A stretch of DNA of 64,000 nt from Paludibacteraceae bacterium (GCA_045587145.1 JAZNBO010000038.1:4275-68274), one strand, 5' to 3'. Positions 5,177 to 23,874 are shown, numbered from the stretch's first letter. Numbers and translations: made by a program. Notes: generated from the letters alone by a model not told the origin.

Positions 5177-7750
5177 ATGAACATGAAAATAGATTGGAAG
5201 AAGATTCTGCCATACGCCGTGGCAATTGTGGCATTCGTGGCAGTGGCGATGATTTATTGCGCTCCTGTATTGGAGGGCAAAGTGCTAGTACAAGGTGATG
5301 TGAACAACTGGAAAGGTGCTGCACAAGAGGCACGTACTTTCTACGACGAGCATGGTACACGTACATGGTGGACCAACTCTATGTTTGGCGGTATGCCTAC
5401 CTACCAGATTACAGGTAGCTTGCCATCTGGTGAAGTGCGCAATGGTATGGCAAAGATCGCTCACCTCGGCATGGAAGGCGGATGGGAAGCCATCGGTATC
5501 ATCTTTGCCTACTTCTTCGGATTCTTCCTCTTGCTTCGTTGTTTTAAGGTCAATCCATGGCTGAGTATCATTGGTGGTTTTGCGATAGGATTCTCGACTT
5601 ATTTCTTTTTGATTATTCCTGCGGGACATATCACCAAGGCTATGGCACTTGGTTTCCTGGCACCCGTTATAGGTGGATTCTATGCTATCTTCCGCAAACA
5701 ATATTGGTTGGGCGCTCCACTCATGGTGCTATACGGTATTCTGAGTATCACTCTCCACCCACAGATGACCTATTATATCTTCATGCTTATTGGTATTATG
5801 GCATGTGCAGAATTGTACATCCATATCAAGGAGAAAGCGTGGAAAGACTTGGGTATATCTGTTGGCGTAGTAGCACTCAGTTTGTTGCTCATCGTGGGTA
5901 CCAAACTCAGTTGGCTCGAAATGAACCAAAACTACCTCAAAGAAACCATGCGTGGTGGACACTCGGAACTGAGAGGCGATGAGGCGAAAGGCGAAAAGGC
6001 GAAAGGCGGAGGTTTAGACTTGGACTACGCTACCGCATGGAGTTATGGTGTGGATGAAACAATGACTTTCCTTATCCCTAACTGGGAAGGTGGTGCGAGC
6101 GGATATAATGTGGGCGAGAAGTCGCAACTTTGCGAGACGATGAAACAGAATGGCGTACCCAAACGTTCTGCCGAACAGTTCTGTGGGCAAGTGCCTACCT
6201 ATCGTGGAGAGAAAGCCTTTACGAGTGGTCCTGTATATATGGGTGCTATTATTTGTTTCCTCTTTGTACTCGGATTGCTGATTGTGAGCGGTCCATACAA
6301 ATGGGCACTGCTTGTAGCTACACTATTCTCCGTTGCATTGGCATGGGGTAGAAATATGATGTGGCTCACAGAACTCTTCTTCAACTACTTCCCAATGTAC
6401 AACAAGTTCCGCGCCGTGGAGAGTATCCTTGTAGTGGCAGAGATCACAATGCCATTGCTCGGTATCATGGCATTGCAACAAGTAGTAGAGAAGAAAATAG
6501 CATGGGATAAGCTAAGAATAAGCATCCTTACCGCTGCTGGTATCACAGGTGGTTTATGCCTCATATTTGCTTTGTTTGGTGCTGCGGTAGATGTAACCAG
6601 TAGTTACGACGGCCAATGGGTAAGCCAAGTGCCTGCATGGCTCAAAGATGCTATCTACGATGAGCGTGTAGCCATGATCAAAGCTGATGCTTGGCGCTCA
6701 CTGATATTTATCGTACTTGGTGCAGGATTGGTATATTGGTATAGTTGGCAGGCTATGAGGCGAGAAGGCGATAAGGCAATGAGGAAATGGACTATTGGTT
6801 TTTATGCACTCCTCGCTGCGCTCGTGCTCGCCGATATGATTCCAGTGAATAAGCGTTTCTTTGGAAATAATAACTTTGTAAAAGCCAAAGATGCTGAACG
6901 ATATTTTGCTATTCAGCCATACGAGGAGCAGATTTTAGAGGATGAGTCGTATTACCGTGTATTGAACTTGGCGACAAATACTTTTAATGATGCACGCACA
7001 AGTTATCGATTGAAATCTATCGGTGGTTATTCGGCTGCAAAATTGCGTCGTTACCAAGATTTGATAGATGAGCATATTTCTAAAGAAATGAATCCGCTGA
7101 TGCAAACGGTGATGCGTACGCAGGGCTTTATGATACCAGATGAGAATGCTGGCAAGGATTTCCCTGTACTGAATATGCTCAATATGAAGTACGCAGTCAT
7201 GCCATTGCAAGGAGGACAGCAAGTACCCGTTATGAACCCGTATGCGATGGGCAATTGTTGGTTTGTGGACGAGGTAATATTGGTAGATACGCCTGATGAG
7301 GAGTGCGCTGCGTTGAGAACGTTGGATTTGCACAAACAGGCGGTGGCTGATAAGAAGTTTGCGGAGGTATTGGATATTACTAAACCCGAGGTGACACCAT
7401 TGATGGCATTTGATGAGAATGTGATCGAGTTGACCTCTTATGCGCCAAACTGCTTGGAGTATGCGGCTATGACCGAGCAAAACAAGGTGGCAGTATTCTC
7501 TGAGATTTACTATCCATATGATTGGCACTTGTATTTGGTAAATGCGAATGGCGAGCAAGTAGAAATTCCTCTTGCACGAGTGAATTATACTTTACGTGCA
7601 GCCGTTATCCCTGCGGGCGCACATCAATTGCGTATGGTCTTTGAACCACATGCTTTGAAGACCGATAAAGCATGCATGGCTATTCTTATTCTTGCATTGC
7701 TTCTGAGCGTAGGTGCTTTAACCTCTCCTTTGTGGAGAAAACAGAAATAA
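5177..7750 (+). CDS. YfhO-family polytopic membrane protein (GT-C-like glycosyltransferase candidate)
   Basis: 857 aa; many TM helices in the N-terminal two thirds, soluble C-terminal domain, final TM; N-terminus typical of Bacteroidota YfhO proteins. Confidence 0.7.
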   Translation: MNMKIDWKKILPYAVAIVAFVAVAMIYCAPVLEGKVLVQGDVNNWKGAAQEARTFYDEHGTRTWWTNSMFGGMPTYQITGSLPSGEVRNGMAKIAHLGMEGGWEAIGIIFAYFFGFFLLLRCFKVNPWLSIIGGFAIGFSTYFFLIIPAGHITKAMALGFLAPVIGGFYAIFRKQYWLGAPLMVLYGILSITLHPQMTYYIFMLIGIMACAELYIHIKEKAWKDLGISVGVVALSLLLIVGTKLSWLEMNQNYLKETMRGGHSELRGDEAKGEKAKGGGLDLDYATAWSYGVDETMTFLIPNWEGGASGYNVGEKSQLCETMKQNGVPKRSAEQFCGQVPTYRGEKAFTSGPVYMGAIICFLFVLGLLIVSGPYKWALLVATLFSVALAWGRNMMWLTELFFNYFPMYNKFRAVESILVVAEITMPLLGIMALQQVVEKKIAWDKLRISILTAAGITGGLCLIFALFGAAVDVTSSYDGQWVSQVPAWLKDAIYDERVAMIKADAWRSLIFIVLGAGLVYWYSWQAMRREGDKAMRKWTIGFYALLAALVLADMIPVNKRFFGNNNFVKAKDAERYFAIQPYEEQILEDESYYRVLNLATNTFNDARTSYRLKSIGGYSAAKLRRYQDLIDEHISKEMNPLMQTVMRTQGFMIPDENAGKDFPVLNMLNMKYAVMPLQGGQQVPVMNPYAMGNCWFVDEVILVDTPDEECAALRTLDLHKQAVADKKFAEVLDITKPEVTPLMAFDENVIELTSYAPNCLEYAAMTEQNKVAVFSEIYYPYDWHLYLVNANGEQVEIPLARVNYTLRAAVIPAGAHQLRMVFEPHALKTDKACMAILILALLLSVGALTSPLWRKQK
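5971..6012. repeat. GGCGAAAGG-type 7-8-bp array in frame inside yfhO (encodes GDEAKGEKAKGGG)
   Basis: GAGAGGCGATGAGGCGAAAGGCGAAAAGGCGAAAGGCGGAGG read directly. Confidence 0.85.
6751..6790. repeat. Degenerate GGCGAnAAGG-type array in frame inside yfhO (encodes AMRREGDKAMRKW)
   Basis: GGCTATGAGGCGAGAAGGCGATAAGGCAATGAGGAAATGG. Confidence 0.6.
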
Positions 7751-7772
7751 CCTAGCCTCTACACTGTACACC

Positions 7773-8675
7773 ATGATTACCCTAATCATTTGCACATATA
7801 ACCGCGAGAAGTATATTGGTCCGTTGTTGGAAAGCATCGCTAAGAACGACTATCCAACTTCGGATTATGAGATTGTATTGGTGGATAACAACTGCACCGA
7901 TAATACGCGAGGCGTATGTGAGCAGTTTGCCACAACTCATCCAGAGATTACGTTGCGCTATGTAGTGGAAACAGAACAAGGACTATCCGCTGCTCGTAAC
8001 AAGGGAATAAAAGAGGCAAAGGGTGATATTATCATCTATGTAGATGATGATGCACTGGTGGATACGGATTACATCCGCATCTATGCAGAGCATTTTGCGG
8101 CTTACCCAGAAACGATGGCCGCAGGTGGTCCTATAGAGCCATTGTATGAGACCGAAGAACCCAAGTGGATGTCGCCTTATACCAAAGCCCTACTGACTGC
8201 ATGGATGAACTATGGCGATAAAGTGCGCGAGTACCCTAATGGTCGTTATCCTGGTGGTGGAAATGCTGCGTACAGGAAAGTGGTGTTTGACCATGTGGGA
8301 TTGTTCAATACGGAACTGGGGCGTAAAGGTAGTGCACTTCTAGCGTCGGAAGAGAAGGATATCTTTGATAAAATGAAGGCACTAGGCATGCTGGTGCTCT
8401 ATTTGCCTACGCCAATGTTGCATCATATTATCCCACAAGCGAAATTAGAAGAAGACTATTTCAACCGCTTAACCTTACAGATTGGTCGTAGCGAGCGTAT
8501 GCGCACGTGCGCTATATCAAAAGGAAAATACCTTAAACGACTACTATCTGAAGGCATCAAATGGGGAGGTACACTTGCCCTACTATGTATATACACACTA
8601 CAAGGACACCCTATGAAAGGATGGAAATTGGTGCTCTTCCGTAGAAATGTAACAAAGGGATTATTGGGCGGTTAG
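7773..8675 (+). CDS. Family-2 glycosyltransferase
   Basis: ICTYNRE...VDNNCTDNT...YVDDDA (GT-A fold with DxD motif); 22 nt after yfhO. Confidence 0.85.
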   Translation: MITLIICTYNREKYIGPLLESIAKNDYPTSDYEIVLVDNNCTDNTRGVCEQFATTHPEITLRYVVETEQGLSAARNKGIKEAKGDIIIYVDDDALVDTDYIRIYAEHFAAYPETMAAGGPIEPLYETEEPKWMSPYTKALLTAWMNYGDKVREYPNGRYPGGGNAAYRKVVFDHVGLFNTELGRKGSALLASEEKDIFDKMKALGMLVLYLPTPMLHHIIPQAKLEEDYFNRLTLQIGRSERMRTCAISKGKYLKRLLSEGIKWGGTLALLCIYTLQGHPMKGWKLVLFRRNVTKGLLGG

Positions 8676-9868
8676 TCCAATAATTGAAGTTTCTTAAAAA
8701 CTAATTCACAACTATTCTTACCACTTGTCTCGCCCCAGAACTTATCCAATATCTTCTGGCGAGCAGTTGCGTCCATAGTGTAATCATTGGTAGAGATTAC
8801 TTGGATAAGTTCGTCGAAGGTATATACTTTTCTTCCGACAATATTATCTTGAATATCAAAGATAAACTCACGACTATTCACATACTCCTCGTAGTCATAA
8901 TGGAAAAGGATAATATGCTTTTTAGGCATAAGAACATAGTCATATAGGATTGACGAATAGTCGGTAATAAGCACATGGGTGTATGGTAAAATGCAATACA
9001 TATCCACATTACCATCAAGGAAAATAAGGTTGCTATATTCTACCGATTTGTCGATGATGGTATTGGCATGTGGTTTCATCAGTACGCACGCATTCTGCGC
9101 GGCTGCACATGCGTTCAAGGCATTGAGATCGAAGCCATTGGCAAAACACTCACGTTGTGAATCACGCCAAGTAGGCATATATACCAACACTGTATCGTAC
9201 TTTTGAATATGTGCTACCAACTGCTTGGTGCCCTGAGATTCGTATTTCTGGATGAACTGATTAACCTCTTCTAATGGTTTATTCAAGAGCATATTACGCG
9301 GACAACCCGTTTGAATACATTGCTCTTTGTTTATACGGAAAGACTGAGAGAATACTCCATCAAAGAAGTCAGTAGTAGATACCATGTAGTCTGGACGTCG
9401 GAATGGTGCAGGGTGATAGAAGGTATCGCGGATATCGCGCTCAACATAGCGTTTAGCCAAGTCACCTTTAGTGATACCAAACTCAATAGCTTTCATCGGT
9501 ACTCCGTGCCAAAGATTGACAATCTTAGCACTACCTGCAAGGCAGAATGCAATATCGGATGAATAGGAATTGACAAACCAGTATTTAGCTCGAAGCGCAT
9601 ACCATAGTCCTTTAATCGAAGCCACATAGTAAGCAGAATAGCCAAGGCTACGGATATGCTTCACGGTAGACTTTTTTGTGGAAACCCAAACGAGTTTGCG
9701 GTTTTTGATATGCTCGTTGGCGTATATAAACTGGTATTTGGAGTTGTCATTGAATCCTCCTCTATACGAACCAAAAACCAATATCTTACTCGTTCGGGGA
9801 ACGAGGTAAGATAATGGATAAACCATGTAACACAAGAGGTATGCTATGAACTTGGCAAACTGTTTCAT
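8672..9868 (-). CDS. CDP-glycerol/polyol-phosphate glycerophosphotransferase (TagB/TagF family)
   Basis: Hallmark motifs NLWHGVPMK, YMPTWRD and ITDYSSILYDY; the stop overlaps the GT2 stop by 4 nt (convergent genes). Confidence 0.8.
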   Translation of the reverse strand: MKQFAKFIAYLLCYMVYPLSYLVPRTSKILVFGSYRGGFNDNSKYQFIYANEHIKNRKLVWVSTKKSTVKHIRSLGYSAYYVASIKGLWYALRAKYWFVNSYSSDIAFCLAGSAKIVNLWHGVPMKAIEFGITKGDLAKRYVERDIRDTFYHPAPFRRPDYMVSTTDFFDGVFSQSFRINKEQCIQTGCPRNMLLNKPLEEVNQFIQKYESQGTKQLVAHIQKYDTVLVYMPTWRDSQRECFANGFDLNALNACAAAQNACVLMKPHANTIIDKSVEYSNLIFLDGNVDMYCILPYTHVLITDYSSILYDYVLMPKKHIILFHYDYEEYVNSREFIFDIQDNIVGRKVYTFDELIQVISTNDYTMDATARQKILDKFWGETSGKNSCELVFKKLQLLD

Positions 9869-11319
9869 TATTCTCCGCGCAGTTTGTGTAATGTCTCGTT
9901 GATAAGTGTACTGGATGTACCTTTGGTGTAAGGGAAATAGACAACTTGTGCACCTACAGCATTGAGGTCGGCCTCAATCTTGTTCCATTTGTCAGTACCC
10001 TTCCAATCATCGCCTACGAACATGACATCAAAATGGTATTTCTCCCAAGCTTCCATCTTGTTCATATTCTCTTGGGTTACTACTTCGTCCACATATTTGA
10101 TGGCAGCTACAATCTCTTTGCGCTCTACAAAAGGAATAACAGCTTGCTTGTGTTTGTAACTTACTAACTCGTCGGTTGATACACCTACGATAAGATAGTC
10201 ACATTGCGCTTTGGCTTTGCGGAGCAGGTTTAAATGCCCAATATGGAATAGGTCATACACACCTGTGGTATAACCTACCTTGATAGGCTCGAACATGTTG
10301 AGGAACTGTTCGAGGCAGTATAGTTGCCATTTCTGATTGCCAGTGAGTTGGTTCATGTCAATATCACGGCGGAACTCTGGGCGCTTAGGGCCACACCAAT
10401 CTTTGAAGTATGCATCTACAGGGCGAGGCATAGGCACCTTGTTTGGTACAGGAATCTCTGGATACTTAATCTGCATCAATTCACGCACGAGGTACTTGGA
10501 TTCGCCATTGCGCACACGATTCAAATCCAACTCATCTGCCATACGGAGCAAAGCGTATGGGTCGGTATATGGCATGCCAGCTGTCTTGAAAGCATTGTAG
10601 TAGGAACTCGATGACTCACGGCTGAATACATCGTCCATGAATTGAAGGAAGTTGATCTTCTCCCCTTGGCGATAACGTTCATAGAGATAGGACATGTCTT
10701 CTGGCTGCTTGAGTACTAATGCAGGATCAAGGAAGGTATAGCGTTTAGCAAAGTCCTCTACTGTCCAATCTTTGGATAATAATTGGTCCATACCGCCAAA
10801 GATAAGGTCACTACTTTCGCCAACGATTAATCGCGTTACACCATCCGCTTTCGCTTGAAGTGCTGCTTGATATAGTTGTGGTTCAATAGAGTGAACGGGA
10901 GCATGCTTGGAGCGCATAACAGGCCCAAGACAGTTTTGCACCGTGTTCCAATCGATATCCACATAATGCAGATTCAGACCATAATATTTGGCATAATATT
11001 CTGCACGGGCCAATTCCTCTTTTTGGTATTCGCCACCCAAGAAACGGAAGGTATAGGCATCACAACCAGGCATATAAGATGCCAAAATAGCAGAGTCCAT
11101 ACCGCCAGAAAGGCAGATACCTAATTTCTCACCTTTGAGGGAATCGAAAACCTTTTGGATAGCCTCATCTATTTCGGCAGCCGTGCGAACGTACGTAAAA
11201 TTCTTGCCATCAGGCAATGGTATATTCTCGTGATGAAGTCCTGGATAAAAATCCATGCCTTCACGCTCAATATAGCGGAAAGCAAGATAGGAACTCATAC
11301 AGAAGTTTTTGTTGTTCAT
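9868..11319 (-). CDS. Fusion: asparagine-synthetase-like PP-loop adenylating domain (no glutaminase domain) plus TagD-like cytidylyltransferase
   Basis: SGGMDS PP-loop at ~aa 70; C-terminal ~130 aa with GVYDLFHIGH (HxGH) nucleotidyltransferase motif. Confidence 0.75.
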   Translation of the reverse strand: MNNKNFCMSSYLAFRYIEREGMDFYPGLHHENIPLPDGKNFTYVRTAAEIDEAIQKVFDSLKGEKLGICLSGGMDSAILASYMPGCDAYTFRFLGGEYQKEELARAEYYAKYYGLNLHYVDIDWNTVQNCLGPVMRSKHAPVHSIEPQLYQAALQAKADGVTRLIVGESSDLIFGGMDQLLSKDWTVEDFAKRYTFLDPALVLKQPEDMSYLYERYRQGEKINFLQFMDDVFSRESSSSYYNAFKTAGMPYTDPYALLRMADELDLNRVRNGESKYLVRELMQIKYPEIPVPNKVPMPRPVDAYFKDWCGPKRPEFRRDIDMNQLTGNQKWQLYCLEQFLNMFEPIKVGYTTGVYDLFHIGHLNLLRKAKAQCDYLIVGVSTDELVSYKHKQAVIPFVERKEIVAAIKYVDEVVTQENMNKMEAWEKYHFDVMFVGDDWKGTDKWNKIEADLNAVGAQVVYFPYTKGTSSTLINETLHKLRGE

Positions 11320-12042
11320 TTATATATCTTCTTTGAATGTTATTTTCTTGTTTTGTTCTTCGCCGAGGACGATGTGGATAGGTATCTCTGGCAGATGGTT
11401 GAATATCACGCCACAGTCGTCGGTGGCGGGTAGATGAGCCTCTGCGCATGCTTCTGCACTTAGACTATCTACACCCAACGCTTTGGTATATGCTTCGGCG
11501 ATTATCTCTATACGGAAGGCCTGGGGCGTTTGAGCACGCATAATAGTAGAGCGTTGTGGGATACGGGCAACCTTGCCGTCTGCCATCTCATAGACCGTGT
11601 CAGTGCTTGGGATAGCTACCGTCACTGCCTCATGCTCCTTAAGCGCCTCGCATACACGAGCAATAATGTCTTGACTGACAAAGGGACGCGCAGCGTCGTG
11701 CAATAAAATGCCTACCCCCATCCCCTCCCTAAAGGGAAGGGAGTTGTCTTGGTTCATAATGGCACGAATAGCATTCACACTCGATTCCCAACGCTCTTTG
11801 CCGCCGGGGATAATGTGGCGGACTTTCTGCCATGCATTAGCCAAAAGCATTTGCTCGGCATAGGCAATATAATCGGGATGCATGACAATACAAACCTCAT
11901 CAATATGAGGTGATTGCTCAAAGGCACTCACAGCATGCTCCAGAACAGAACGACCATCAGCGAGGGGAAGCAGTTGTTTGGGGGTATTGCCCCCAACACG
12001 TGCTCCTATGCCTCCTGCTAATATGACGGCGATGTTATACAT
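11320..12042 (-). CDS. IspD/TarI-family cytidylyltransferase
   Basis: ILAGGIGARVGGNTPKQLLPL, HDAARPF and QTPQAF motifs; AGGIG form resembles TarI. Confidence 0.8.
   Translation of the reverse strand: MYNIAVILAGGIGARVGGNTPKQLLPLADGRSVLEHAVSAFEQSPHIDEVCIVMHPDYIAYAEQMLLANAWQKVRHIIPGGKERWESSVNAIRAIMNQDNSLPFREGMGVGILLHDAARPFVSQDIIARVCEALKEHEAVTVAIPSTDTVYEMADGKVARIPQRSTIMRAQTPQAFRIEIIAEAYTKALGVDSLSAEACAEAHLPATDDCGVIFNHLPEIPIHIVLGEEQNKKITFKEDI
11711..11746. repeat. C/G-rich palindromic insert in frame in the ispD-like gene (encodes SLPFREGMGVG)
   Basis: CCTACCCCCATCCCCTCCCTAAAGGGAAGGGAGTTG; placed just before the conserved HDAARP motif. Confidence 0.6.
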
Positions 12043-12091
12043 GTAGTGTGGTATAAGGTTGTGTAGTGTTGTTTAGAGTGGGGTAGAGTCG
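12043..12091. repeat. 10-bp-phased TAG-word array between the ispD-like start and the kdsC-like 3' end
   Basis: GTAGTGTGGTATAAGGTTGTGTAGTGTTGTTTAGAGTGGGGTAGAGTCG; supplies the kdsC-like C-terminus NDSTPL and its stop. Confidence 0.8.
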
Positions 12092-12585
12092 TTTTTTGCG
12101 GCGAGTATCATTTCGCAGAGTTCGCGGATAGCGCCGTCGCCGCCGTTTTTGGTGAGGTGGATAATGCCAGGGACGGCTTTGACTACGGCTACGGCGTTGG
12201 CTGGGCATGCGGCTACGCCTGCGTGCTGCAAGAGATCGAGGTCGTTGACATCATCGCCCACAAAGCATACATTCTCCAACGAAATGCCCAATTCGTTGCA
12301 AATCTCGTTCGCAGCATCGAGTTTGGTCATCTTCACGCCGTCCACTACGCGACCGACACCTGTGTATATATATTCCAAACCGAGTTTCTGACCGCGTTTC
12401 AAGCCAATGGCAGTGTTCTCGCTGGTGAGGATACCGCAAGGGATACCCGCTTTGCGCAAGAGTACAATACCCATGCCGTCATATACGCAGAAACGTTTGA
12501 ACTCGTCACCGCTCTCGGTGTAGTACATACCGCCGTCGGTCATGCAACCGTCCACGTCGGTGAGAAATAGTTTCACTTCGTTCAT
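12073..12585 (-). CDS. KdsC-family HAD phosphatase (sugar-acid phosphate phosphatase type)
   Basis: DVDGCMTDG nucleophile motif; GDDVNDLDLL motif IV; ~170 aa capless HAD. Confidence 0.75.
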   Translation of the reverse strand: MNEVKLFLTDVDGCMTDGGMYYTESGDEFKRFCVYDGMGIVLLRKAGIPCGILTSENTAIGLKRGQKLGLEYIYTGVGRVVDGVKMTKLDAANEICNELGISLENVCFVGDDVNDLDLLQHAGVAACPANAVAVVKAVPGIIHLTKNGGDGAIRELCEMILAAKNDSTPL

Positions 12586-12587
12586 TA

Positions 12588-12637
12588 TGTTTAGAGTTGT
12601 TTAGAATCGTTTAGAGTTGTTTAGAATTGTGTAAAAA
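12588..12637. repeat. Perfectly 10-bp-phased GTTTAGA(G/A)T array x4-5
   Basis: TGTTTAGAGT TGTTTAGAAT CGTTTAGAGT TGTTTAGAAT TGTGTAAAAA; encodes the GT4 C-terminus YTILNNSKRF and its stop. Confidence 0.9.
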
Positions 12638-13743
12638 GTATTTGCCATGCCAGACCAGGAGTAGCGGTCTTTCTGCTGAATCAGGTACTGGGTGTAGTCG
12701 GCTTGTCGATTGTTAGTGTAGTAGTCGGTGATGGCCTCGGCGATAGCATCTGCATTAGGTTTGACTGCATATCCCATCTTATGGTCGTGAACTATCTCGC
12801 CTAAGCCTCCTACATTGGTCACTAGCATTGGTTTCTCGAAATGGAACGCCACTTGTGTTACGCCACTCTGTGTGGCCGATTTATAAGGTTGCACAATCAA
12901 ATCAGCAGCACCAAAATACTTGCACAAGTCGGCATCTGCGATAAAGTCGTTTTTGATAATCACTCTATCAGCTAAATTGTTGTTAGCTATTTGTGCGCGG
13001 TATTTCTCCTCGTCCTCGTAGAACTCGCCTGCCACTATCAGTCGCAAGTCTGGTAGTAGGTCTTTTACTTTGCCAAAAGCATCAAGCAGAAGATCAAGCC
13101 CTTTGTATGCTCTAACCAAACCAAAGAAAAGCATATACTGCTTCTTAGGGTCAAGGTTGAGCGCTTGGCATGCCTCGTTTTTCTCCATCTGTGCACCATA
13201 GTGGTCATAGATAGGGTGGGGATATGATGTTTTTGGTTTGACGTGTTTGTCAAGCGAATCAATATCTCTCACCACACTCTCGGACAATGCCACAAAACCG
13301 TCGGTATTGCGCACATAGAATGGGGCAAGCAGTTTGTCGAGAATGTTTGGTTCGTGCGGTATCATATTGTGTACCAAAGCGATACAACGTGTTTTGCCAT
13401 TGCGTTTAGCGATGCGCTGGATGATGCCGTAGCATGGTGCGAAGAACGCCATCCAGTAGCAAGAGATGAGCAGGTCGGGCTGCATGCGGCGAATCTTATT
13501 GCCAACTTTCCACCAATTGAGAGGGTTGCAGGAATGGACTTGCTGCGTGATATGTAGGTCGGCAGGCTGTTGTTCGTTGGAGTATTGCGTTTTGCCAGGA
13601 AAGAGGAAGGACGGATATTGCAGGGTGAAAGTAATGACTTCCACCTCGTGTCCTTCTGCTTGCAGTTGGCGAGCAAGGCGTTCGTTGAACGCTGCTAATC
13701 CTCCGCGGAAAGGGTATGCTGTGCCGAGTAGGACGATATGCAT
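12601..13743 (-). CDS. Family-4 (GT-B) glycosyltransferase
   Basis: 380 aa; N-terminus HIVLLGTAYPFRGGLAAFNERLA; C-terminal EX7E-like region (GEIVHDHKMGY). Confidence 0.8.
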   Translation of the reverse strand: MHIVLLGTAYPFRGGLAAFNERLARQLQAEGHEVEVITFTLQYPSFLFPGKTQYSNEQQPADLHITQQVHSCNPLNWWKVGNKIRRMQPDLLISCYWMAFFAPCYGIIQRIAKRNGKTRCIALVHNMIPHEPNILDKLLAPFYVRNTDGFVALSESVVRDIDSLDKHVKPKTSYPHPIYDHYGAQMEKNEACQALNLDPKKQYMLFFGLVRAYKGLDLLLDAFGKVKDLLPDLRLIVAGEFYEDEEKYRAQIANNNLADRVIIKNDFIADADLCKYFGAADLIVQPYKSATQSGVTQVAFHFEKPMLVTNVGGLGEIVHDHKMGYAVKPNADAIAEAITDYYTNNRQADYTQYLIQQKDRYSWSGMANTFYTILNNSKRF

Positions 13744-13882: not shown

Positions 13883-14911
13883 TTATTTATTAAAAGCGTT
13901 CCAACCTTGGGCTTTGAGGGCGATTTCTTCACCATTTCTACCGATAAGGTTGATACCATGCTCGGGTTTGGTGATATGCCCAACGAGATATACGTCCTCC
14001 AATGGAATAAGTTTCTCGTAGTCGTCCAATGAACAGGTGAACAGTAGTTCGTAGTCTTCACCACCATTGAGGGCGCAAGTCACGATATTGAGGTTCATCT
14101 CCTCAGCGAGGGCTGCGGCTTGATAATCAATAGGCAGTTTATCTTCGTATACGGAACAACCAACATTAGACTGTGTACAGATGTGCATGAGTTCGCTACT
14201 GAGTCCGTCGGAGATATCCATCATAGCAGTTGGCTTGATACCTGCCTCGTGCAACTGTTTAATGATGTCGCGACGCGCTTCTGGTTTGAGTTGGCGTTCG
14301 AGCAGATACTCGCGACCTTCAAAAGCAGGGGTAGCGTTCTCATTGGCGTTCATGACGATGCGCTCGCGTTCGAGAAGTTGCAGACCCATATACGCTGAGC
14401 CAAGATTGCCAGTGACACAGATAAGATCATTCACTTTTGCGCCATTGCGATAGACGATGTCGGATTCGTATGCTGTACCGAGGCCGGTAATGGAGATTGT
14501 CAAACCTGTCATAGAAGCAGAAGTGTCGCCACCTACGAGATCCACACCGTAGCGTTCGCAAGCAAGACGGATACCGCTATACAGTTCTTCGAGATCTTCT
14601 ACGGAGAATCGTTTGCTAATGCCAAGAGACACGGTTATTTGTGTAGGGGTGGCGTTCATAGCGTAAATATCGGAGAAGTTGACCACGGCTGCTTTGTAAC
14701 CGAGATGTTTGAGGGGCACATATTCGAGGTTGAAGTGTATACCTTCGAGTAGAAGGTCGGTAGTGACGAGTGTACGTTTGCTGTTAAAATTGAGGACAGC
14801 GGCATCGTCTCCGATGCCCTTTTGGGTGGATTCCTGTACGTGTTGAATGTCTTTGGTCAGGTGCTTGATTAGTCCAAACTCGCCTAATGTGGAAATATCT
14901 GTTTTAGCCAT
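13883..14911 (-). CDS. thiL: Thiamine-monophosphate kinase
   Basis: GEFGLI...GIGDDAAV and GGDT motifs; PurM-like fold; 342 aa. Confidence 0.85.
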   Translation of the reverse strand: MAKTDISTLGEFGLIKHLTKDIQHVQESTQKGIGDDAAVLNFNSKRTLVTTDLLLEGIHFNLEYVPLKHLGYKAAVVNFSDIYAMNATPTQITVSLGISKRFSVEDLEELYSGIRLACERYGVDLVGGDTSASMTGLTISITGLGTAYESDIVYRNGAKVNDLICVTGNLGSAYMGLQLLERERIVMNANENATPAFEGREYLLERQLKPEARRDIIKQLHEAGIKPTAMMDISDGLSSELMHICTQSNVGCSVYEDKLPIDYQAAALAEEMNLNIVTCALNGGEDYELLFTCSLDDYEKLIPLEDVYLVGHITKPEHGINLIGRNGEEIALKAQGWNAFNK

Positions 14912-16410: not shown

Positions 16411-19400
16411 GTGAAAAAACTGATAATCATATTACTGGCGATTGGCAATGGACTATTGGCAATTGCGCAAGAAGATTCGTTGGCAATGGTAGTAGATACT
16501 GCCATCATGGCACCTATGCAAGTAAAAGGAGTAGGAGTGAACAACTACGACGACTTGAATAGAGTGCATAGTAGTTTGGATCTGCAAGACCCGGAGAATG
16601 TCAATACAACGATCGAGTATGACCCCCTAACCGGTGGTTACGTCGTGCGCACGCGCATGGGCGATGTGGAGATTGCTACTCCCTACATGATGACTGCAGA
16701 GGAGTATCGTACCTACTCCGAAAAACAAGAGATGGGGAAATTCTGGCAAGGGAAAATCAGCGAAGTAGAACACGATAACGAGAGCAAATTTGATATTACC
16801 GATATGAAATTCAATATCGGACCTGCCGATAAAGTTTTTGGTCCTGGCGGCGTACAAGTGAAACTGCAAGGATCGGCTGAACTGCTCTTTGGTTTTAAAC
16901 ACCAATTCATAGACAACCCCGCGCTGACACAACGTTCGCGAAACAACAATATCTTTGACTTTGACGAGAAAATCCAATTGAGCGTGAACGGAAAAGTAGG
17001 TGAGAAACTGAACTTCAACATGAGTTACAACACCGAAGCATCGTTCAGCTTTGACCAACAGAACCTAAAACTGAACTTCAAGGGTCAAGAAGATGATATT
17101 ATCCAATCCTTAGAGGCGGGTAATGTATCCATGACCCTAAACAACAGTTTGATACGCGGTAGTAGCGCACTATTCGGCGTGAAAGCAGATATGAAATTCG
17201 GCAAACTGCGTGTGCAAGCATTGGTGTCGCAGCAGAACTCAGAAAGCCAAACTGTCAGCAGTAAAGGCGGTGCACAGACAACGAACTTTGAGGTGCCAAT
17301 TGACAGTTACGATGAGAATCGACATTTCTTCCTGAGTTACTATTTCCGTGATAACTATGAGCAAGCAATGAAAGCATTGCCATACATCGCGAGCGGCGTG
17401 ACTATCAATCGCATTGAGGTGTGGGTGACAAATAAGCGAGCAAACTACGACGAGGCACGCAATATCGTAGCATTGACCGACTTGGGAGAGTACGACCCAG
17501 TGCATATCCAAAACATACAGTGGAACACTGTATCAGGTGCGCGCACTCCATATAACAAAGCCAATACTCTCTACGAGGTATTGACACAAAGCAATCCTGC
17601 GGTACGTGACATTCAGCAGGTGAGCAGCGTGATGCAATCCATAGGAATGGACGTGAGCGAAGACTATGAGAAAATAGAATCAGCACGCCTATTAAGCAGT
17701 AGTGAATATACACTGAATGCAGCATTAGGTTACATCTCTCTGAAAGCAGCGTTGAACCAAGATGAGGTCTTGGCAGTAGCATACGAATATACCTACGCTG
17801 GACAAGTATATCAAGTGGGTGAGTTCTCAACCGATGCCGGAGAATCGCTGAAAGCACCCAACGCCCTGCTGCTGAAAATGCTGAAAAGTAGCAACAATGC
17901 ACCTATCGCAAAAAACAAAGGCACATGGGACCTCATGATGAAAAACATCTATTCCATCGGAGCAAGTCAGATGAGTAGCGATAAGTTTGAGTTATACGTG
18001 CAATACCGCAACGACTCTGTGGGTACGGATATGCAGTACCTCATGGAAGGTGCTATCAAAGGCAAACAGTTGATTCGCGTAATGGGCATGGATAGATTGG
18101 ATTCGCGCAACAATGCCTCACCCGATGGACGATTTGACTATGTGGAAGGATACACAGCATTGTCGTCTTCGGGACGAATCATTTTCCCCGTATTGGAGCC
18201 TTTTGGTAGTCACTTGAAACGCGAGATCGGTGATCCGAAGGTGGCAGAAAAATATGTCTTCCAAGAGTTGTATGACTCCACCCTAGTGAGCGCGCAAGAA
18301 TATACCGAGAAGAATAAGTTTGCCTTGGTCGGTAAATACAAAGGCTCATCGGGTAACGAGATTCGCCTAAACGCAATGAACGTTCCCCGCGGAAGTGTGG
18401 TGGTAACAGCCGGTGGCGCGACTCTGATAGAGAACGTGGATTACACCGTGGACTATACCATGGGAACCGTGACGATATTGAATCAGTCCATCTTGGAGTC
18501 TGGAACGAATGTCGATGTAAAATTGGAGAATCAAGCCCTATTCTCTATGCAACGTAAATCACTATTCGGTGCGAACTTGCAATATGAGTTTAATAAGGAC
18601 TTTACGATTGGCGGTACCATTATGCACTTGAACGAACGTCCAATCACGACCAAAGTTAATACAGGTAGCGAGCCGTTGGCAAATACTGTGTGGGGCGTGA
18701 ATGCGAATTGGAAGACGGAAATGCAATGGCTGACCCTGCTCATTGACAAAGTGCCATGGATCAATGCTACCGCACCTTCTACCTTCCAAATCAATGCGGA
18801 GTTTGCTCACCTGATACCAGGTCACACCAAAGAAGTGGGACAAGTAGGTACAGCATACATTGACGACTTTGAAGCAACTAAGACCAACATCGATATTCAT
18901 TATCCAAGTTATTGGCGATTGGCTTCTACACCGCGTTCGGATAATTTCCCTGAGTATGCATTGAGCGATTCCGTAGCCTACAACAAGAATCGTGCGCTTT
19001 TGGCGTGGTACACAGTGGACCCTATCTTTGGTAAACCAAGTAGCAACACGCCTAAACACATTAAGGATAACATAGAACTCATGTGCGACCATCGCACACG
19101 TACTGTGTATGAGCAAGAGGTGTACCCTAACAAACAAGTGATGGCAAATGCCGATACACGATTGCCCGTACTGAACCTGAGTTACTACCCCGATGAGCGT
19201 GGTCCGTACAATATCTCTGCTGATGAGATAGGTCGTGACGGTAAATTGACAAATCCACAAGATCGTTGGGGTGGTATCATGCGAAAGTTGGATAACACCG
19301 ATTTTGAGAAAGCCAATATAGAGTATATCGAATTTTGGTTAATGGACCCATTCTTGACCAATCCAGATGCGGCATATACAGGTGGTGACTTATACATAGA

Positions 19401-22400
19401 CTTAGGTGATATAAGCGAAGATATTCTGCGCGATGGCAAGAAGAGCTTTGAGCATGGATTACCATTGAATGAGGCAGATGAAAAACAGACAGAGAGTACC
19501 GTTTGGGGACGTATGTCACGCACTACAAGCACTGTGGTGGCGTTTGCCAATGAGGCAGGAGCGAGAAGCAAACAAGACGTCGGCATAGATGGATTGACCA
19601 CCATACAAGAGATGGATCCGATGTATCTCTATTACAATGGTCGCAACCCGTATGTGGAATATCTCAAAGCCTTGGAAGCGAAAGTGGATCCTGCGGTATG
19701 GGAGATGTGGGATACAGATGAGTTTTCTCCAAGAAGAGACCCCGCAGGTGATAACTACCACTACTACCGTGGTGATGACTACGACGAGCAAGAAACACCA
19801 ATCCTATTGCGCTATAAACGCTATAATGGTACAGAGGGTAACTCGCCAGAAGCGCAGGAGAATGAACGCTATGGTAGTGCATCAACCCTGTATCCTGATA
19901 TAGAGGATATTAACAATGATAATACACTCAACGATGGCGAGCGTTTCTATCGTTATCGTATCTCGTTGCGTCCACAAGATATGCAACGCGTAGGACAACA
20001 ACACATTGCTAGCATCATGGAAACGACAGTGAAACTGCGCAACGATGAGATGGCAACGGTGAAGTGGTATCAATTTAAGATTCCATTGAAAGGCGATAGT
20101 GCAACTGTACAGAAAGTGGGTAATATCCGCAATTTCAAGTCAATTCGTTTTGCGCGAATCTTTATGACCAATTTCAGACAAGAGACACACATACGTTTTG
20201 CATCGTTCGACTTGGTGCGTGGCGAGTGGCGTAACTATACCAAAGGTTTGTATCAAGATGTGGCCAATAATCAATACAATATAGCCAATCCTTATACTTC
20301 GGTGGGTACATTGGACGTACAGGCAGTGAATATAGAAGAGAACTCTAACCGTACACCTGTAAACTATGTGTTACCCCCTGGTATATCGCGTCAGACAGAC
20401 CCAGGACAAGCACAATTGATTGCACAAAATGAGCAAGCAATGGTGCTAAAACTGAACTATTTGCCAGTGAAAGACGCACGCGCTGTGTACAAGAATGTGA
20501 CATACGATATGCGACAATACAAACGCTTGCAGATGTTTGTACACGCAGAGTGTATGCCAGACTTTGAACCAATACAAGATAATGAACTCACATGCTTTAT
20601 CCGTTTGGGTTCGGATTTGAAGAACAACTACTACGAGTATGAAATACCATTGTCACTCACACCAGAAGGATTCTATAACGACAATAGTGCGGAAGATAGA
20701 TTGAAAGTGTGGTTGGAGAAGAATACCTTTGATTTCCCATTGAGCGTCTTCACCGATGCAAAGATGGCTCGCAACAAATCGAAACGTGCTGGCAATACCA
20801 ATGTGGGTAATACCATACCGTATGTAGTATACGACCCTGAGAAGTTGGATAATAAGATTACAGTCTTAGGTAATCCAACCTTAGAAGATGTGCAAGCCAT
20901 CATGATTGGTGTGCGCAACAACAGTAATCGCGAGGTGAGCGGTGAAGTATGGGTCAATGAGCTGCGTCTCAGTCAGTTTAATGAGCAGGGCGGTGTGGCT
21001 GCTATGGCAAATGCGGCACTAAGCGTGAGCGATATTGCACAAGTGAACGTGGCAGGACGTTTGGAGACCGCAGGATATGGTTCGATAGAATCAAACGTGT
21101 TGGACCGCAACATGGAGAATATGTATCAACTATCCGTGAGTGCTGCATTAGAGGCCGGACGTCTCTTCCCTGAGAAAGCAAAACTGCAAATACCGCTGTA
21201 TGTATCATATACCAATGAGACATTGTCGCCTAACTACGATCCATTGGATACGGATATAAAACTCTCGGAGAGTTTGGAGAATTATGAGACAAAAGCAGAA
21301 CGCGATTCTATCAAAGAAATGGCGAACACGGTACAAGAGGCTACTAGTTTCTCGGTGACAAATATGAAACTAGATATCCATTCTAAAAAGCAGAATATGT
21401 TCTATGACCCAGCTAACTTCTCTGTATCGGCAAGCTATAACAAGCAAAATCAACATACTCCTGAGATAGAGCAAGATATTGTGACCGATCAAAAGGGTTC
21501 GTTCAACTATTCATTTAACTTCAACCCAAAGCCTTGGGAACCATTTAAGAATGTGAAAGGGGTGGACAAAGTGAAGTTCTTGAAGGAGATGAACTTCTAC
21601 TATCTACCCCAATCCTGGGCGTTCAATACCACTATGCACCGTACTTACACCCATTTGAAGATGCGTGATTTCAGCGTGGAAGCGACCGGTGCAGCGGATA
21701 TGGATCTGACATTCTCCAAAGACTTTACATGGGATCGCAATTTCGACTTTAAGTACGACTTGACGAAGAACATGAAGTTCACATTCCAAACCGCAATGAA
21801 CTCAACCGTAGATGAAGGATACTACACGCCAGAGATAATTCGTGATTATGCCTTCACCAATGATTATTACGAGGCATGGAAAGATACTATCCAACGCAGT
21901 TTGGCAACATGGGGAAATCCATATACGTATCAACAACTTTTTTCCGCTTCGTGGAATATACCATTCAATCGTATCCCTTACTTAGAGGCTCTGACAGCCA
22001 ACGGCTCGTACAATGCAACCTACAATTGGAATAGGACAATGCAATCTTCTTCTGCAGCAGAAACAACCAACTTGGGTAATGTTGTAAGCAGCACACGAGC
22101 TTGGCAAGTGGACGGAGGCTTGAATTTTGAAACATTGTACGGCAAGTCTAAATACTGGAAGCAGATGACACAACGCTTCAATCAACGTGCACGTCGTCGT
22201 CCATTCCGTTCAAAGAGTTACGATGAGGTTGTTACACTGGTGGCAGGCGAACCTAAGGAAATTAATCACCGTTTGGGCAGTGAGACAGTAGAGGTGATGG
22301 CTACAACAGAGAGTGGTAAACCGGTGAAAGTAAAAGTGCAGTCCACCACATCTACGCAAGTAACGATTGTGTCAAAGAGCAATGTAGAAAATGTGAAACT

Positions 22401-23874
22401 GACTGTTAAAACTACGGATCAAAATCAGCGTAGTGCAGCAGAAAAAGCGATGGATATGGCAGCATACTTTGGTACGATGTTGCGTAAAGTACAGGTGACT
22501 TATCGCAATACCAATTCGCTCACCTTGCCTGGCTTCGCTCCACAGGCGGGATTTATGGGACAGAATAAGTATAATGACTTGTACGCCCCTGGATTTGACT
22601 TCGCGTTCGGATTCTTCGATGATGGTTTTGTGGAGAAAGCTAAGAATAATGGTTGGCTCTCTGGCGATACGACCGTGGTGCAACCTGCCACACGCACAAT
22701 GACCAACGACTTTGATGTGAAAGTGACAGTCGAACCATTCCCTGGTTTCAAGATTCAAGTGAATGGTAAGCGCTATGCGGCAGAGTCATCATCTATTATT
22801 TACTCGTTCGACCAATTGCAGGAGAATATGACAGGATCGTTCAATATCACGCAAGTGGCTATCGGTACTGCCTTCCAAAAGATTGGTTCGGTGGACGAAA
22901 ACTTTGCATCGGAGGTGTTTGACCAATTCTTGAATAACCGCGATATTATGACCAATCGTGTGCAACAACAGTATGAGGGTATGAACTATCCAAATGCAGG
23001 CTTTATACCAACCGAGTTGCGCGGTAAGAAATATGATCGCAAGTATGGTACAGTGGGAAATAATACAGCCGATGTGTTGGTACCTGCGTTCTTAGCGGCA
23101 TACACAGGACGCGACCCATATAGTGTGAAACTGAATCCGTTTATGAGTTTGCTACAAGTATTACCTAACTGGTCTGTGACATTCGATGGTTTGGGCAAAC
23201 TGCCATGGATGCGTGATAATTTCAAGTCGGTGAATATCACTCATGCTTATACCTGTAAGTACGCTATTGGTAGTTATTCAAGTTATTCTACTTGGACACC
23301 TGCTGGCGAATTGAGCAACAAGCATGTCGGCTTCGTGCGCGATGTGGAGACTGAGAACCCAATCCCTTCTTCAGCATACGACATTTCGTCGGTGACACTG
23401 TCGGAGAGTTTCTCCCCATTGATTGGTTTGAACATGACAATGAAGAACTCGCTCTCTGCAAAGGTGGAATATCGCAAGCAACGCAATGTGTCGCTGAATA
23501 TCAACTCTGTACAAATCAGCGAGGGACATACCAATGAGTTTGTGATTGGTGCAGGATATACGATAAAGGATTTGAGTTTCATTGCTAAGTCAGGCGATAG
23601 CCAAAAGAAAGTTAGCAACGACTTGAAACTGAACGTAGATGTTAGTTATAAGGATATCAAGACCCTATTGCGTAAGGTAGAAGAAGGTATTACACAGGCA
23701 AGTTCAGGTAATAAAGTGTTTGGTATAAAGATTAGTGCAGATTACGTGCTATCTCAGAAGATAAATCTGCAACTCTTCTATGATCACCAAGGTACTACAC
23801 CGCTTATCTCGTCGTCTTACCCAACTAAGGCAGACAATTTTGGTATCAATATCAAATTGATGCTGACGAGATAA
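16411..23874 (+). CDS. sprA: T9SS translocon SprA/Sov
   Basis: 2487-aa signal-peptide protein, size and beta-rich composition as SprA; ruvA-sprA neighbourhood; GTG start. Confidence 0.8.
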   Translation: MKKLIIILLAIGNGLLAIAQEDSLAMVVDTAIMAPMQVKGVGVNNYDDLNRVHSSLDLQDPENVNTTIEYDPLTGGYVVRTRMGDVEIATPYMMTAEEYRTYSEKQEMGKFWQGKISEVEHDNESKFDITDMKFNIGPADKVFGPGGVQVKLQGSAELLFGFKHQFIDNPALTQRSRNNNIFDFDEKIQLSVNGKVGEKLNFNMSYNTEASFSFDQQNLKLNFKGQEDDIIQSLEAGNVSMTLNNSLIRGSSALFGVKADMKFGKLRVQALVSQQNSESQTVSSKGGAQTTNFEVPIDSYDENRHFFLSYYFRDNYEQAMKALPYIASGVTINRIEVWVTNKRANYDEARNIVALTDLGEYDPVHIQNIQWNTVSGARTPYNKANTLYEVLTQSNPAVRDIQQVSSVMQSIGMDVSEDYEKIESARLLSSSEYTLNAALGYISLKAALNQDEVLAVAYEYTYAGQVYQVGEFSTDAGESLKAPNALLLKMLKSSNNAPIAKNKGTWDLMMKNIYSIGASQMSSDKFELYVQYRNDSVGTDMQYLMEGAIKGKQLIRVMGMDRLDSRNNASPDGRFDYVEGYTALSSSGRIIFPVLEPFGSHLKREIGDPKVAEKYVFQELYDSTLVSAQEYTEKNKFALVGKYKGSSGNEIRLNAMNVPRGSVVVTAGGATLIENVDYTVDYTMGTVTILNQSILESGTNVDVKLENQALFSMQRKSLFGANLQYEFNKDFTIGGTIMHLNERPITTKVNTGSEPLANTVWGVNANWKTEMQWLTLLIDKVPWINATAPSTFQINAEFAHLIPGHTKEVGQVGTAYIDDFEATKTNIDIHYPSYWRLASTPRSDNFPEYALSDSVAYNKNRALLAWYTVDPIFGKPSSNTPKHIKDNIELMCDHRTRTVYEQEVYPNKQVMANADTRLPVLNLSYYPDERGPYNISADEIGRDGKLTNPQDRWGGIMRKLDNTDFEKANIEYIEFWLMDPFLTNPDAAYTGGDLYIDLGDISEDILRDGKKSFEHGLPLNEADEKQTESTVWGRMSRTTSTVVAFANEAGARSKQDVGIDGLTTIQEMDPMYLYYNGRNPYVEYLKALEAKVDPAVWEMWDTDEFSPRRDPAGDNYHYYRGDDYDEQETPILLRYKRYNGTEGNSPEAQENERYGSASTLYPDIEDINNDNTLNDGERFYRYRISLRPQDMQRVGQQHIASIMETTVKLRNDEMATVKWYQFKIPLKGDSATVQKVGNIRNFKSIRFARIFMTNFRQETHIRFASFDLVRGEWRNYTKGLYQDVANNQYNIANPYTSVGTLDVQAVNIEENSNRTPVNYVLPPGISRQTDPGQAQLIAQNEQAMVLKLNYLPVKDARAVYKNVTYDMRQYKRLQMFVHAECMPDFEPIQDNELTCFIRLGSDLKNNYYEYEIPLSLTPEGFYNDNSAEDRLKVWLEKNTFDFPLSVFTDAKMARNKSKRAGNTNVGNTIPYVVYDPEKLDNKITVLGNPTLEDVQAIMIGVRNNSNREVSGEVWVNELRLSQFNEQGGVAAMANAALSVSDIAQVNVAGRLETAGYGSIESNVLDRNMENMYQLSVSAALEAGRLFPEKAKLQIPLYVSYTNETLSPNYDPLDTDIKLSESLENYETKAERDSIKEMANTVQEATSFSVTNMKLDIHSKKQNMFYDPANFSVSASYNKQNQHTPEIEQDIVTDQKGSFNYSFNFNPKPWEPFKNVKGVDKVKFLKEMNFYYLPQSWAFNTTMHRTYTHLKMRDFSVEATGAADMDLTFSKDFTWDRNFDFKYDLTKNMKFTFQTAMNSTVDEGYYTPEIIRDYAFTNDYYEAWKDTIQRSLATWGNPYTYQQLFSASWNIPFNRIPYLEALTANGSYNATYNWNRTMQSSSAAETTNLGNVVSSTRAWQVDGGLNFETLYGKSKYWKQMTQRFNQRARRRPFRSKSYDEVVTLVAGEPKEINHRLGSETVEVMATTESGKPVKVKVQSTTSTQVTIVSKSNVENVKLTVKTTDQNQRSAAEKAMDMAAYFGTMLRKVQVTYRNTNSLTLPGFAPQAGFMGQNKYNDLYAPGFDFAFGFFDDGFVEKAKNNGWLSGDTTVVQPATRTMTNDFDVKVTVEPFPGFKIQVNGKRYAAESSSIIYSFDQLQENMTGSFNITQVAIGTAFQKIGSVDENFASEVFDQFLNNRDIMTNRVQQQYEGMNYPNAGFIPTELRGKKYDRKYGTVGNNTADVLVPAFLAAYTGRDPYSVKLNPFMSLLQVLPNWSVTFDGLGKLPWMRDNFKSVNITHAYTCKYAIGSYSSYSTWTPAGELSNKHVGFVRDVETENPIPSSAYDISSVTLSESFSPLIGLNMTMKNSLSAKVEYRKQRNVSLNINSVQISEGHTNEFVIGAGYTIKDLSFIAKSGDSQKKVSNDLKLNVDVSYKDIKTLLRKVEEGITQASSGNKVFGIKISADYVLSQKINLQLFYDHQGTTPLISSSYPTKADNFGINIKLMLTR
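16437..16468. repeat. GGCnATTGG-type array encoding the sprA signal-peptide h-region (LLAIGNGLLAIAQ)
   Basis: GGCGATTGGCAATGGACTATTGGCAATTGCGC; same word family as 51309-51345. Confidence 0.6.

Follow-up and report, generated by a model that had tools for sequence, protein, structure and literature searches.

A composite Paludibacteraceae locus with a predicted glycan-decoration cassette centred on an AsnB-like::TagD-like fusion protein

Introduction

What does a Gram-negative bacterium make with a cluster of teichoic-acid-like genes? The question is raised by the locus at positions 5177-13743 of a 64,000-nt stretch of DNA (here called the window; all positions refer to the whole of it) from a Paludibacteraceae bacterium (GCA_045587145.1, JAZNBO010000038.1:4275-68274). 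The source genome is a metagenome-assembled genome (MAG) of 1.9 Mb that is 91% complete. An earlier note on this DNA had described a whole toolkit clustered at the locus, in which TagD makes cytidine diphosphate (CDP)-glycerol, TarI makes CDP-ribitol, TagF makes the polymer, and a CsbB-type family 2 glycosyltransferase (GT2) together with YfhO glycosylates it outside the membrane.

Our results indicate that the locus is not such a toolkit but joins housekeeping anchors to a swappable cassette. The cassette consists here of a gene for an AsnB-like::TagD-like fusion protein, a TagF-like phosphotransferase gene and a soluble GT2 gene, and it is variable, horizontally exchanged and accessory. We suggest, with a probability of roughly 0.6, that this composite region carries a glycan-decoration cassette, whose likely role is to modify a glycan with a CDP-activated phospho-substituent. 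An amide may be part of this substituent, as in glyceramide phosphate (see below).

The AsnB-like::TagD-like fusion protein

Pfam searches place Asn_synthase at residues 64-242 (E 6.5e-15) and CTP_transf_like at residues 350-473 (E 1.3e-17) of one 483-aa protein, the AlphaFold model of which has a predicted local distance difference test (pLDDT) score of 89. The TagD-like domain matches the TagD structures 2b7l and 1coz with Foldseek template modelling (TM) scores of 0.86-0.88 and 38-40% identity. Alignment to these structures shows that the HxGH (FHIGH), KxK and GDDW motifs are retained, and that the position of RTEGISTT is occupied by YTKGTSST, the Tyr of which is invariant in 36 homologues. 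With the TagD model TIGR01518 the fusion scores 101.3 bits against an equivalog cut-off of 165.4, and this is still the best NCBIfam match of the domain. The Arg-to-Tyr change was considered as a marker of pairing with AsnB and rejected, as Tyr or His also occupies this position in TagD-like genes of the family that have no AsnB-like partner. A small TagD-like gene with HxNH (e.g. FHVNH) for HxGH and PYGxGxSS for RTEGISTT is conserved in many genomes of the family (L094-L103).

The fold of the AsnB-like domain matches those of AsnB (1ct9), human ASNS (9b6c), TsnB9 (7ylz) and carbapenam synthetase (1q15), all with a Foldseek probability of 1.0. Among PDB structures no significant sequence match to this domain was found, only spurious ones with E>0.01. 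The AsnB model TIGR01536 gives 40 bits against a cut-off of 267, and the NCBI name of the stand-alone AsnB-like protein is only ‘asparagine synthase-related protein’. A glutaminase domain was not found in the fusion, whose Asn_synthase match begins at residue 64. In 47 homologues of the AsnB-like domain the residues C7, R15, S71, D75, H143, E146, D171, R270, K275, R279, K294, R299, R313, E315 and K330 are invariant, as is the PP-loop SGGMDS.

As modelled, the domain has the fold of a glutaminase-less PP-loop adenylating synthetase. It shares this fold, the PP-loop SGGxDS and a conserved Lys/Arg pair (K275/R279 in the window) with the glutaminase-less members of the AsnB superfamily, i.e. beta-lactam synthetase, carbapenam synthetase and TsnB9. 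However, it has no N-terminal domain, is only 13-17% identical to these enzymes and is always partnered with a cytidylyltransferase.

The TagF-like phosphotransferase

The gene directly after the fusion encodes a protein matched by Glyphos_transf (PF04464) over profile positions 3-360 of 367 (E 1.8e-54, 185.6 bits). Its sequence matches in the PDB are TarL, Bcs3 (E 1.8e-14), TagF and Cps3D (E 8.5e-9), and it stays below the cut-offs of the named enzymes: 110.6 versus 550 bits for TarF, 73.9 versus 1000 for TarL and 39.7 versus 500 for TarB. ‘LWHG’ and ‘KPH’ motifs, which may correspond to the catalytic histidines of TagF, can be read in the sequence; at the first aligned position TarL has Asn. 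This is the only Glyphos_transf gene of the genome.

The observation at the heart of the earlier note, a TagF-family enzyme beside a TagD-type cytidylyltransferase in a Gram-negative member of the Bacteroidota, is borne out. The window encodes SprA, the type IX secretion translocon (a 2487-aa open reading frame (ORF) at 16411-23874 on the plus strand; Pfam SprA_N, E 2.7e-198), and the genome encodes KdsC and, on a contig other than that of the locus, KdsB. The presence of SprA and KdsB identifies the host as a diderm member of the Bacteroidota. A teichoic-like locus in a Gram-negative bacterium is not in itself surprising, because TagF-like enzymes are already known in diderms, including Bacteroides; our Bacteroides thetaiotaomicron control genome also matches Glyphos_transf.

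Variation and distribution of the cassette

Across 79 related loci, the thiL-GT4-kdsC-ispD-fusion block (GT4 being a family 4 glycosyltransferase) is conserved in Paludibacteraceae and the genes beyond the fusion vary. The gene directly 3' of the fusion is of the TagF type in 24 of the 79 loci and of the LicD type in 34; two loci scored as lacking a phosphotransferase (L013 and L039) carry divergent Glyphos_transf or LicD genes. The exchange is visible at the same chromosomal site in a sister Paludibacteraceae genome (L008), where the fusion is followed by LicD, GT4 and GT2 genes that converge on the YfhO-like gene. In the LicD-type alleles a 65% homologue of the GT2 lies on the strand of the fusion.

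The AsnB-like part was found in about 10 of 121 genomes of the family and in none of the five genomes of the same genus. Beyond the family, relatives of the fusion with 59-81% identity are present in contigs labelled Lachnospiraceae, Oscillospiraceae, Clostridium, Selenomonadaceae, an Elusimicrobium MAG and a ‘Tenericutes’ MAG. Where the identity falls below 77%, the Firmicutes-type loci have separate, often overlapping genes, TagD first and AsnB-like second, and the same holds for Selenomonadaceae and the Elusimicrobium MAG; in one Selenomonadaceae locus (L068) the two are fused in the order reverse to that of the window. In Clostridium transplantifaecale the TagD/AsnB-like pair and LicD are placed between glycosyltransferases, Wzy and Wzx, i.e. 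in a polysaccharide locus.

Two further features of the Firmicutes loci were noted. In six of them (L053, L062, L066, L067, L077 and L078) two tandem or nearby AsnB-like paralogues, 38-58% identical to the window domain, accompany one TagD-like gene. In contigs labelled Firmicutes bacterium CAG:95 and Acidaminococcaceae (L030 and L031) the fused genes are 80-81% identical to that of the window and have a Bacteroidales-like LicD neighbour, which reflects either very recent transfer or mis-binned contigs.

The start codon of the TagF-like gene shares one nucleotide with the stop codon of the fusion, and the pairing of fusion and phosphotransferase recurs in at least 60 of the 79 loci, in several phyla. 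The module thus behaves as a unit. That the locus mixes housekeeping and accessory genes could be taken to mean that unrelated genes have come together by chance, or that the locus is decaying and its genes share no product. With all ORFs intact, gene ends that overlap and a pairing found so often, such an explanation is very improbable, and it was rejected because of the intact ORFs and the recurring pairing.

Proposed function of the cassette

What the analysis shows are the domain identities, the coupling of the genes and the behaviour of the cassette; the chemistry that follows is a proposal. From sequence we predict a surface glycan with a phosphodiester-linked substituent. The AsnB-like domain, acting in the cytoplasm, would adenylate and then amidate the carboxylate of a small phosphorylated metabolite. 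As the module needs no further conserved genes, its substrate is probably a central metabolite, and our leading guess is the conversion of 3- or 2-phosphoglycerate to phosphoglyceramide. The TagD-like domain, following the chemistry of its family, would combine the resulting phospho-alcohol with cytidine triphosphate (CTP) to give a CDP-activated head group; it might also make plain CDP-glycerol. Next, on the cytoplasmic face of the membrane, the TagF-like enzyme would move the phospho-head group from the CDP donor onto a sugar residue in a lipid-linked glycan, and the finished glycan would be exported by machinery encoded elsewhere.

That the TagF-like enzyme uses a CDP donor to transfer a phospho-head group is suggested by LicD, which replaces it directly after the fusion in other loci. 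The earlier note had left open whether the product is a polymer or a decoration. A phosphate-containing surface glycan is still predicted, and both the small, single-domain TagF-like protein and the LicD that replaces it elsewhere speak for a decoration rather than a long polymer; judging from its size and this exchange, the enzyme would stop after one or a few units and not build a chain of teichoic-type length.

That the fused partner feeds the TagD-like domain is suggested by analogy. In other genomes of the family a TagD-like domain, 47-52% identical, is fused to a short-chain dehydrogenase. One such fusion (L093, 3989-5359, minus strand) is directly followed by a TagF-like gene and then by a Caps_synth glycosyltransferase; another (L092, 1548-2699, minus strand) adjoins radical-SAM and UbiA-family genes. 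The dehydrogenase::TagD-like fusion parallels the reductase-cytidylyltransferase CDP-alditol synthases, which suggests that the substrate of the cytidylyltransferase is made by its fused partner. Phosphoglyceramide would have nearly the same shape as glycerol-3-phosphate, and an amide-bearing three-carbon phosphate substituent has a natural precedent: D-glyceramide 2-phosphate is part of the O-antigen of Providencia alcalifaciens O22 (Ovchinnikova et al. 2012, cited in PMC6222762).

From this we tentatively propose that, across several phyla of gut bacteria, the AsnB-like and TagD-like pair supplies a new head group, CDP-activated and amide-bearing, for TagF/LicD-type enzymes to attach to surface glycans. 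The route would be widespread, and its leading candidate product is CDP-glyceramide, formed from phosphoglycerate, adenosine triphosphate (ATP), ammonia and CTP. The proposal is possible rather than probable, and phosphoglyceramide as the specific product is a guess of low probability.

Several points weigh against the proposal. Related TagD-like genes (L090 and L091, 52-60% identity) stand beside LicD/TagF-like genes with no AsnB-like gene within about 4 kb, so that the cytidylyltransferase can evidently act without this partner, and the Arg-to-Tyr change in RTEGISTT is not specific to the AsnB-paired copies. Fusion is no proof of consecutive steps: the activities fused in HldE belong to heptose activation but do not follow directly on each other. 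The substrate and product named above are candidates, the acceptor may be the lipopolysaccharide core, the O-antigen or the capsule, and, the genome being an incomplete MAG, the statements that a gene is its only copy carry some risk.

These points lead to the main rival of the favoured reading. The TagD-like domain would make ordinary CDP-glycerol, from which TagF or LicD adds glycerol phosphate; the AsnB-like domain would perform a separate glycan step, e.g. amidating a uronic acid or another carboxylate, and the fusion would reflect co-regulation or a complex, not substrate channelling. This explanation draws on the identity of the domain to authentic TagD and its best NCBIfam match, a glycerol-3-phosphate cytidylyltransferase, and it keeps some probability because TagD-like genes occur beside LicD/TagF-like genes without an AsnB-like partner. 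The altered motif, being present in unpaired copies too, is compatible with it. It also draws on a genome of the same genus (G022), which at the same site has a different amide-forming set together with a TagF-like gene: the order there is GT4, aminotransferase, HAD, TupA-type ATP-grasp, TagF-like, GT2 and YfhO-like.

On the other hand, the adjacency of TagD and AsnB is very tight and conserved across phyla, with fusions in both orders, and the dehydrogenase::TagD fusion offers a parallel in which the partner is plausibly substrate-making. Moreover, the AsnB-like proteins are 59-76% identical across phyla, which would be unusual if they recognised differing glycans. We therefore regard separate CDP-glycerol and amidation steps as a doubtful explanation, and keep a CDP-activated, possibly amide-bearing head group as our favoured, if tentative, reading.

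The alternative cassette of G022 (L086, 6874-10766, minus strand) comprises a class I/II aminotransferase, a HAD protein, a TupA-type ATP-grasp protein and the TagF-like protein. Its aminotransferase/HAD/TupA set resembles the enzymes of Campylobacter jejuni HS:2 glucuronamide (serinol/ethanolamine) formation, which act on the sugar.

IspD and KdsC as probable flanking anchors

The teichoic acid pathway described in the earlier note gains some plausibility from the TagF-like, TagD-like and IspD/TarI-like domains, which lie in one co-directional, tightly packed run. The IspD-like gene, assigned there to TarI and CDP-ribitol, points the other way. It has a Pfam match with E 2.1e-41, is the sole strong IspD match in the genome, and scores just under the TIGR00453 cut-off, which we attribute to variable loop insertions in IspD orthologues; with NF001183 it gives 130 bits against a cut-off of 166. 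In these orthologues low-complexity insertions, the length of which varies from 0 to about 30 residues among close relatives, are found just ahead of HDAARP and again in a later loop. The methylerythritol phosphate (MEP) pathway is in use, since IspF is encoded on another contig.

Five genomes of the same genus, 99-100% complete, were compared. Each has one IspD-like orthologue (56-66% identity) and none has the fusion. In all five the ispD gene lies within about 2 kb of kdsC, in varying order, and thiL stands beside ispD/kdsC in the three genomes whose retrieved stretch includes thiL. GT4 orthologues with 70-73% identity occur in two of these five genomes without the module. The KdsC-family HAD protein scores 124 bits with TIGR01670 (cut-off 106.95) and 169 bits with the KDN-9-P phosphatase model (cut-off 180). 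It is the only KdsC-family gene of the genome, with KdsB encoded elsewhere, and the place in a teichoic acid toolkit that had been supposed for it is not supported.

IspD and KdsC look like housekeeping proteins because they are sole genome copies kept near thiL in same-genus genomes without the module, and they are probably anchors of the locus, not parts of the module. As IspD is single-copy, IspF is present and orthologues persist in relatives lacking the module, there is no dedicated TarI and no support for a CDP-ribitol branch; on our reading, CDP-ribitol would not be made from this locus. No TarJ was reported in the window, and no genome-wide TarJ search was made. In the sister genome with the LicD-type allele (L008) a gene for a HipA_C-domain kinase, of the toxin-antitoxin type, lies between kdsC and ispD (8264-9202, plus strand).

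The YfhO-like membrane protein and the neighbouring GT2

The large membrane protein at the edge of the locus had been called a YfhO protein. It has no Pfam match at all, even at E≤10, and PF09586 (YfhO) was not found genome-wide even at E≤1; a direct call was therefore rejected, and homologue transitivity and fold were used instead. The protein has 4746 relatives among 1.8 billion representatives, and PF09586 matches 53 of 55 full-length homologues with 32-53% identity to it (best E 2e-17). An AlphaFold model built from 63 sequences (pLDDT 91.6, predicted TM score 0.91) has the GT-C enzymes AftD, ArnT, AglB, PglB and EmbC as top Foldseek matches. About 10 hydrophobic segments and a beta-rich C-terminal domain are recognised, and all 63 homologues share D41 in the first loop. 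The assignment to YfhO-family GT-C proteins thus stands, but only indirectly, by way of homologues and the modelled fold.

In most loci the YfhO-like gene is found at the edge of the variable region, and in G022, which lacks the module, it adjoins the different cassette. In a few loci (L013, L033 and L042) a divergent YfhO-like paralogue is co-directional and inside the cassette operon; therefore some functional link to the glycan is plausible, although such a link extends beyond the AsnB/TagD module.

The GT2 is matched by Glycos_transf_2 (E 7.9e-32). No membrane helix or hydrophobic segment was predicted in it, and it is most similar to soluble GT2 enzymes, not to GtrB, ArnC or CsbB, the ArnC model giving only 24.9 bits. 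The absence of membrane helices means that it is not of the CsbB type. The genome has three GtrA-type flippase genes, all on other contigs (C24, C17 and C35), and none was found on the contig of the locus.

The pairing of a CsbB-type GT2 with YfhO, on which external glycosylation of a teichoic acid was to rest, is not supported. The support for YfhO family and GT-C fold, and the start of the GT2 gene 22 nt 3' of the YfhO-like gene, speak for the teichoic pathway; the soluble GT2, the missing flippase, the IspD findings and a single-domain TagF-like protein interchangeable with LicD speak against it. As an account of the whole set of genes it is improbable, and a composite locus with a decoration cassette is preferred.

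Layout of the locus

ORF listing recovered all eight ORFs, the seven genes of the locus included, with the same ends and strands as before (Table 1), and Pfam and NCBIfam back the TagF-like, AsnB-like::TagD-like, IspD-like, KdsC-like HAD, GT4 and GT2 calls. The convergent GT2 and TagF-like ORFs share four nucleotides, ‘ttag’ at 8672-8675, as had been noted. A terminator between the two arms had been denied, but an inverted repeat spans both stops and so places a hairpin between them; it is AT-rich and may act as a two-way transcription stop.

Table 1. Features of the locus and its surroundings, with positions in the window
Feature	Position	Strand	Remarks
Putative YfhO-family GT-C-fold membrane protein	5177-7750	+	857 aa; borders variable region
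Soluble GT2, cassette-linked	7773-8675	+	300 aa; Glycos_transf_2
Inverted repeat	8659-8685		11-bp stem, 5-nt loop; covers convergent GT2 and TagF-like stops
TagF-like Glyphos_transf phosphotransferase, core gene	8672-9868	-	398 aa, one domain
AsnB-like::TagD-like fusion, core gene	9868-11319	-	483 aa; Asn_synthase and CTP_transf_like
TagD-like cytidylyltransferase domain of fusion	9871-10284	-	residues 346-483
AsnB-like synthetase domain of fusion	10285-11319	-	residues 1-345; PP-loop LSGGMDSA at residues 70-77
IspD, flanking anchor	11320-12042	-	240 aa; probably housekeeping MEP-pathway cytidylyltransferase, not TarI
KdsC-family HAD phosphatase, flanking anchor	12073-12585	-	170 aa; probably housekeeping Kdo-8-P phosphatase
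GT4, semi-conserved with thiL-kdsC-ispD block	12601-13743	-	380 aa; Glycos_transf_1 and Glyco_transf_4
thiL	13883-14911	-	flank next to GT4 side; ruvA further out

The opposite flank holds a MerR/GyrI regulator and rnf genes. A profile search placed the only matches of the genome to Wzx (PF01943) and Wzy_C (PF04932) on other contigs, in agreement with the earlier observation that neither is encoded in the window. Prevotellaceae had been named as the taxon for comparison; the nearest relatives are Paludibacteraceae MAGs from ruminant guts, in which the fusion protein is 98% identical.

Comparison with known systems

The TagD/TarD and TagB/TarF/TagF proteins of Bacillus and Staphylococcus also combine a TagD-fold cytidylyltransferase bearing HxGH with a neighbouring Glyphos_transf enzyme. 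TagB and TarF add one or a few units, and the phosphotransferase of the window is of like size. In contrast to this wall teichoic acid system, the cytidylyltransferase is here fused to an AsnB-like domain, scores below the TagD cut-off and has YTKGTSST for RTEGISTT, the host is a diderm, and neither a TagO/TagA primer set nor a TagGH exporter is present at the locus.

Closer in cell type are Bcs3 of Haemophilus influenzae b and Cps3D of Actinobacillus (PDB 8a0c and 8qoy), which have related TagF-like domains and use CDP-activated polyol phosphates in diderms. These are multi-domain polymerases of more than 1100 aa from capsule loci with ABC transporters, whereas the TagF-like protein of the window has a single domain, no exporter nearby and a LicD counterpart. 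The LicD family, which performs phosphocholine and related additions, stands in the TagF-like position behind the fusion both in Firmicutes and in sister genomes, but the window itself has the TagF-like enzyme.

Bcs1/TarIJ-type CDP-alditol synthases likewise join a precursor-forming enzyme to the activating cytidylyltransferase, as does the dehydrogenase::TagD-like fusion in the same family. In the window, however, the partner is of the ATP-dependent, amide-forming AsnB type, not a reductase, and the cytidylyltransferase is of the TagD type, not the IspD type. The CsbB/GtcA/YfhO system of Bacillus and Listeria resembles the locus in its YfhO-family GT-C protein, but the membrane-anchored GtrB/CsbB-type GT2 and the GtrA/GtcA flippase are missing from the locus, and the YfhO-like gene also stands beside another cassette.

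A literature search returned nothing relevant on a characterised AsnB-like/TagD pair or on CDP-glyceramide biosynthesis, and the AsnB-like and TagD module appears to be uncharacterised.

Implications

For the annotation of related genomes, the locus advises caution: IspD- and KdsC-like genes near glycan cassettes are here probably housekeeping anchors and not teichoic acid genes.

How phages, antibodies and innate lectins recognise surface glycans depends to a large extent on phosphodiester-linked substituents, among them glycerol phosphate, phosphocholine and ribitol phosphate. The cassette described here swaps its TagF or LicD delivery enzyme and moves among Bacteroidota, Firmicutes and other gut phyla. 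If these three mobile genes do indeed install a new head group, this would represent fresh glycan chemistry, and a CDP-glyceramide route, if true, would give a biosynthetic origin for glyceramide-phosphate substituents such as that of the Providencia alcalifaciens O22 O-antigen.

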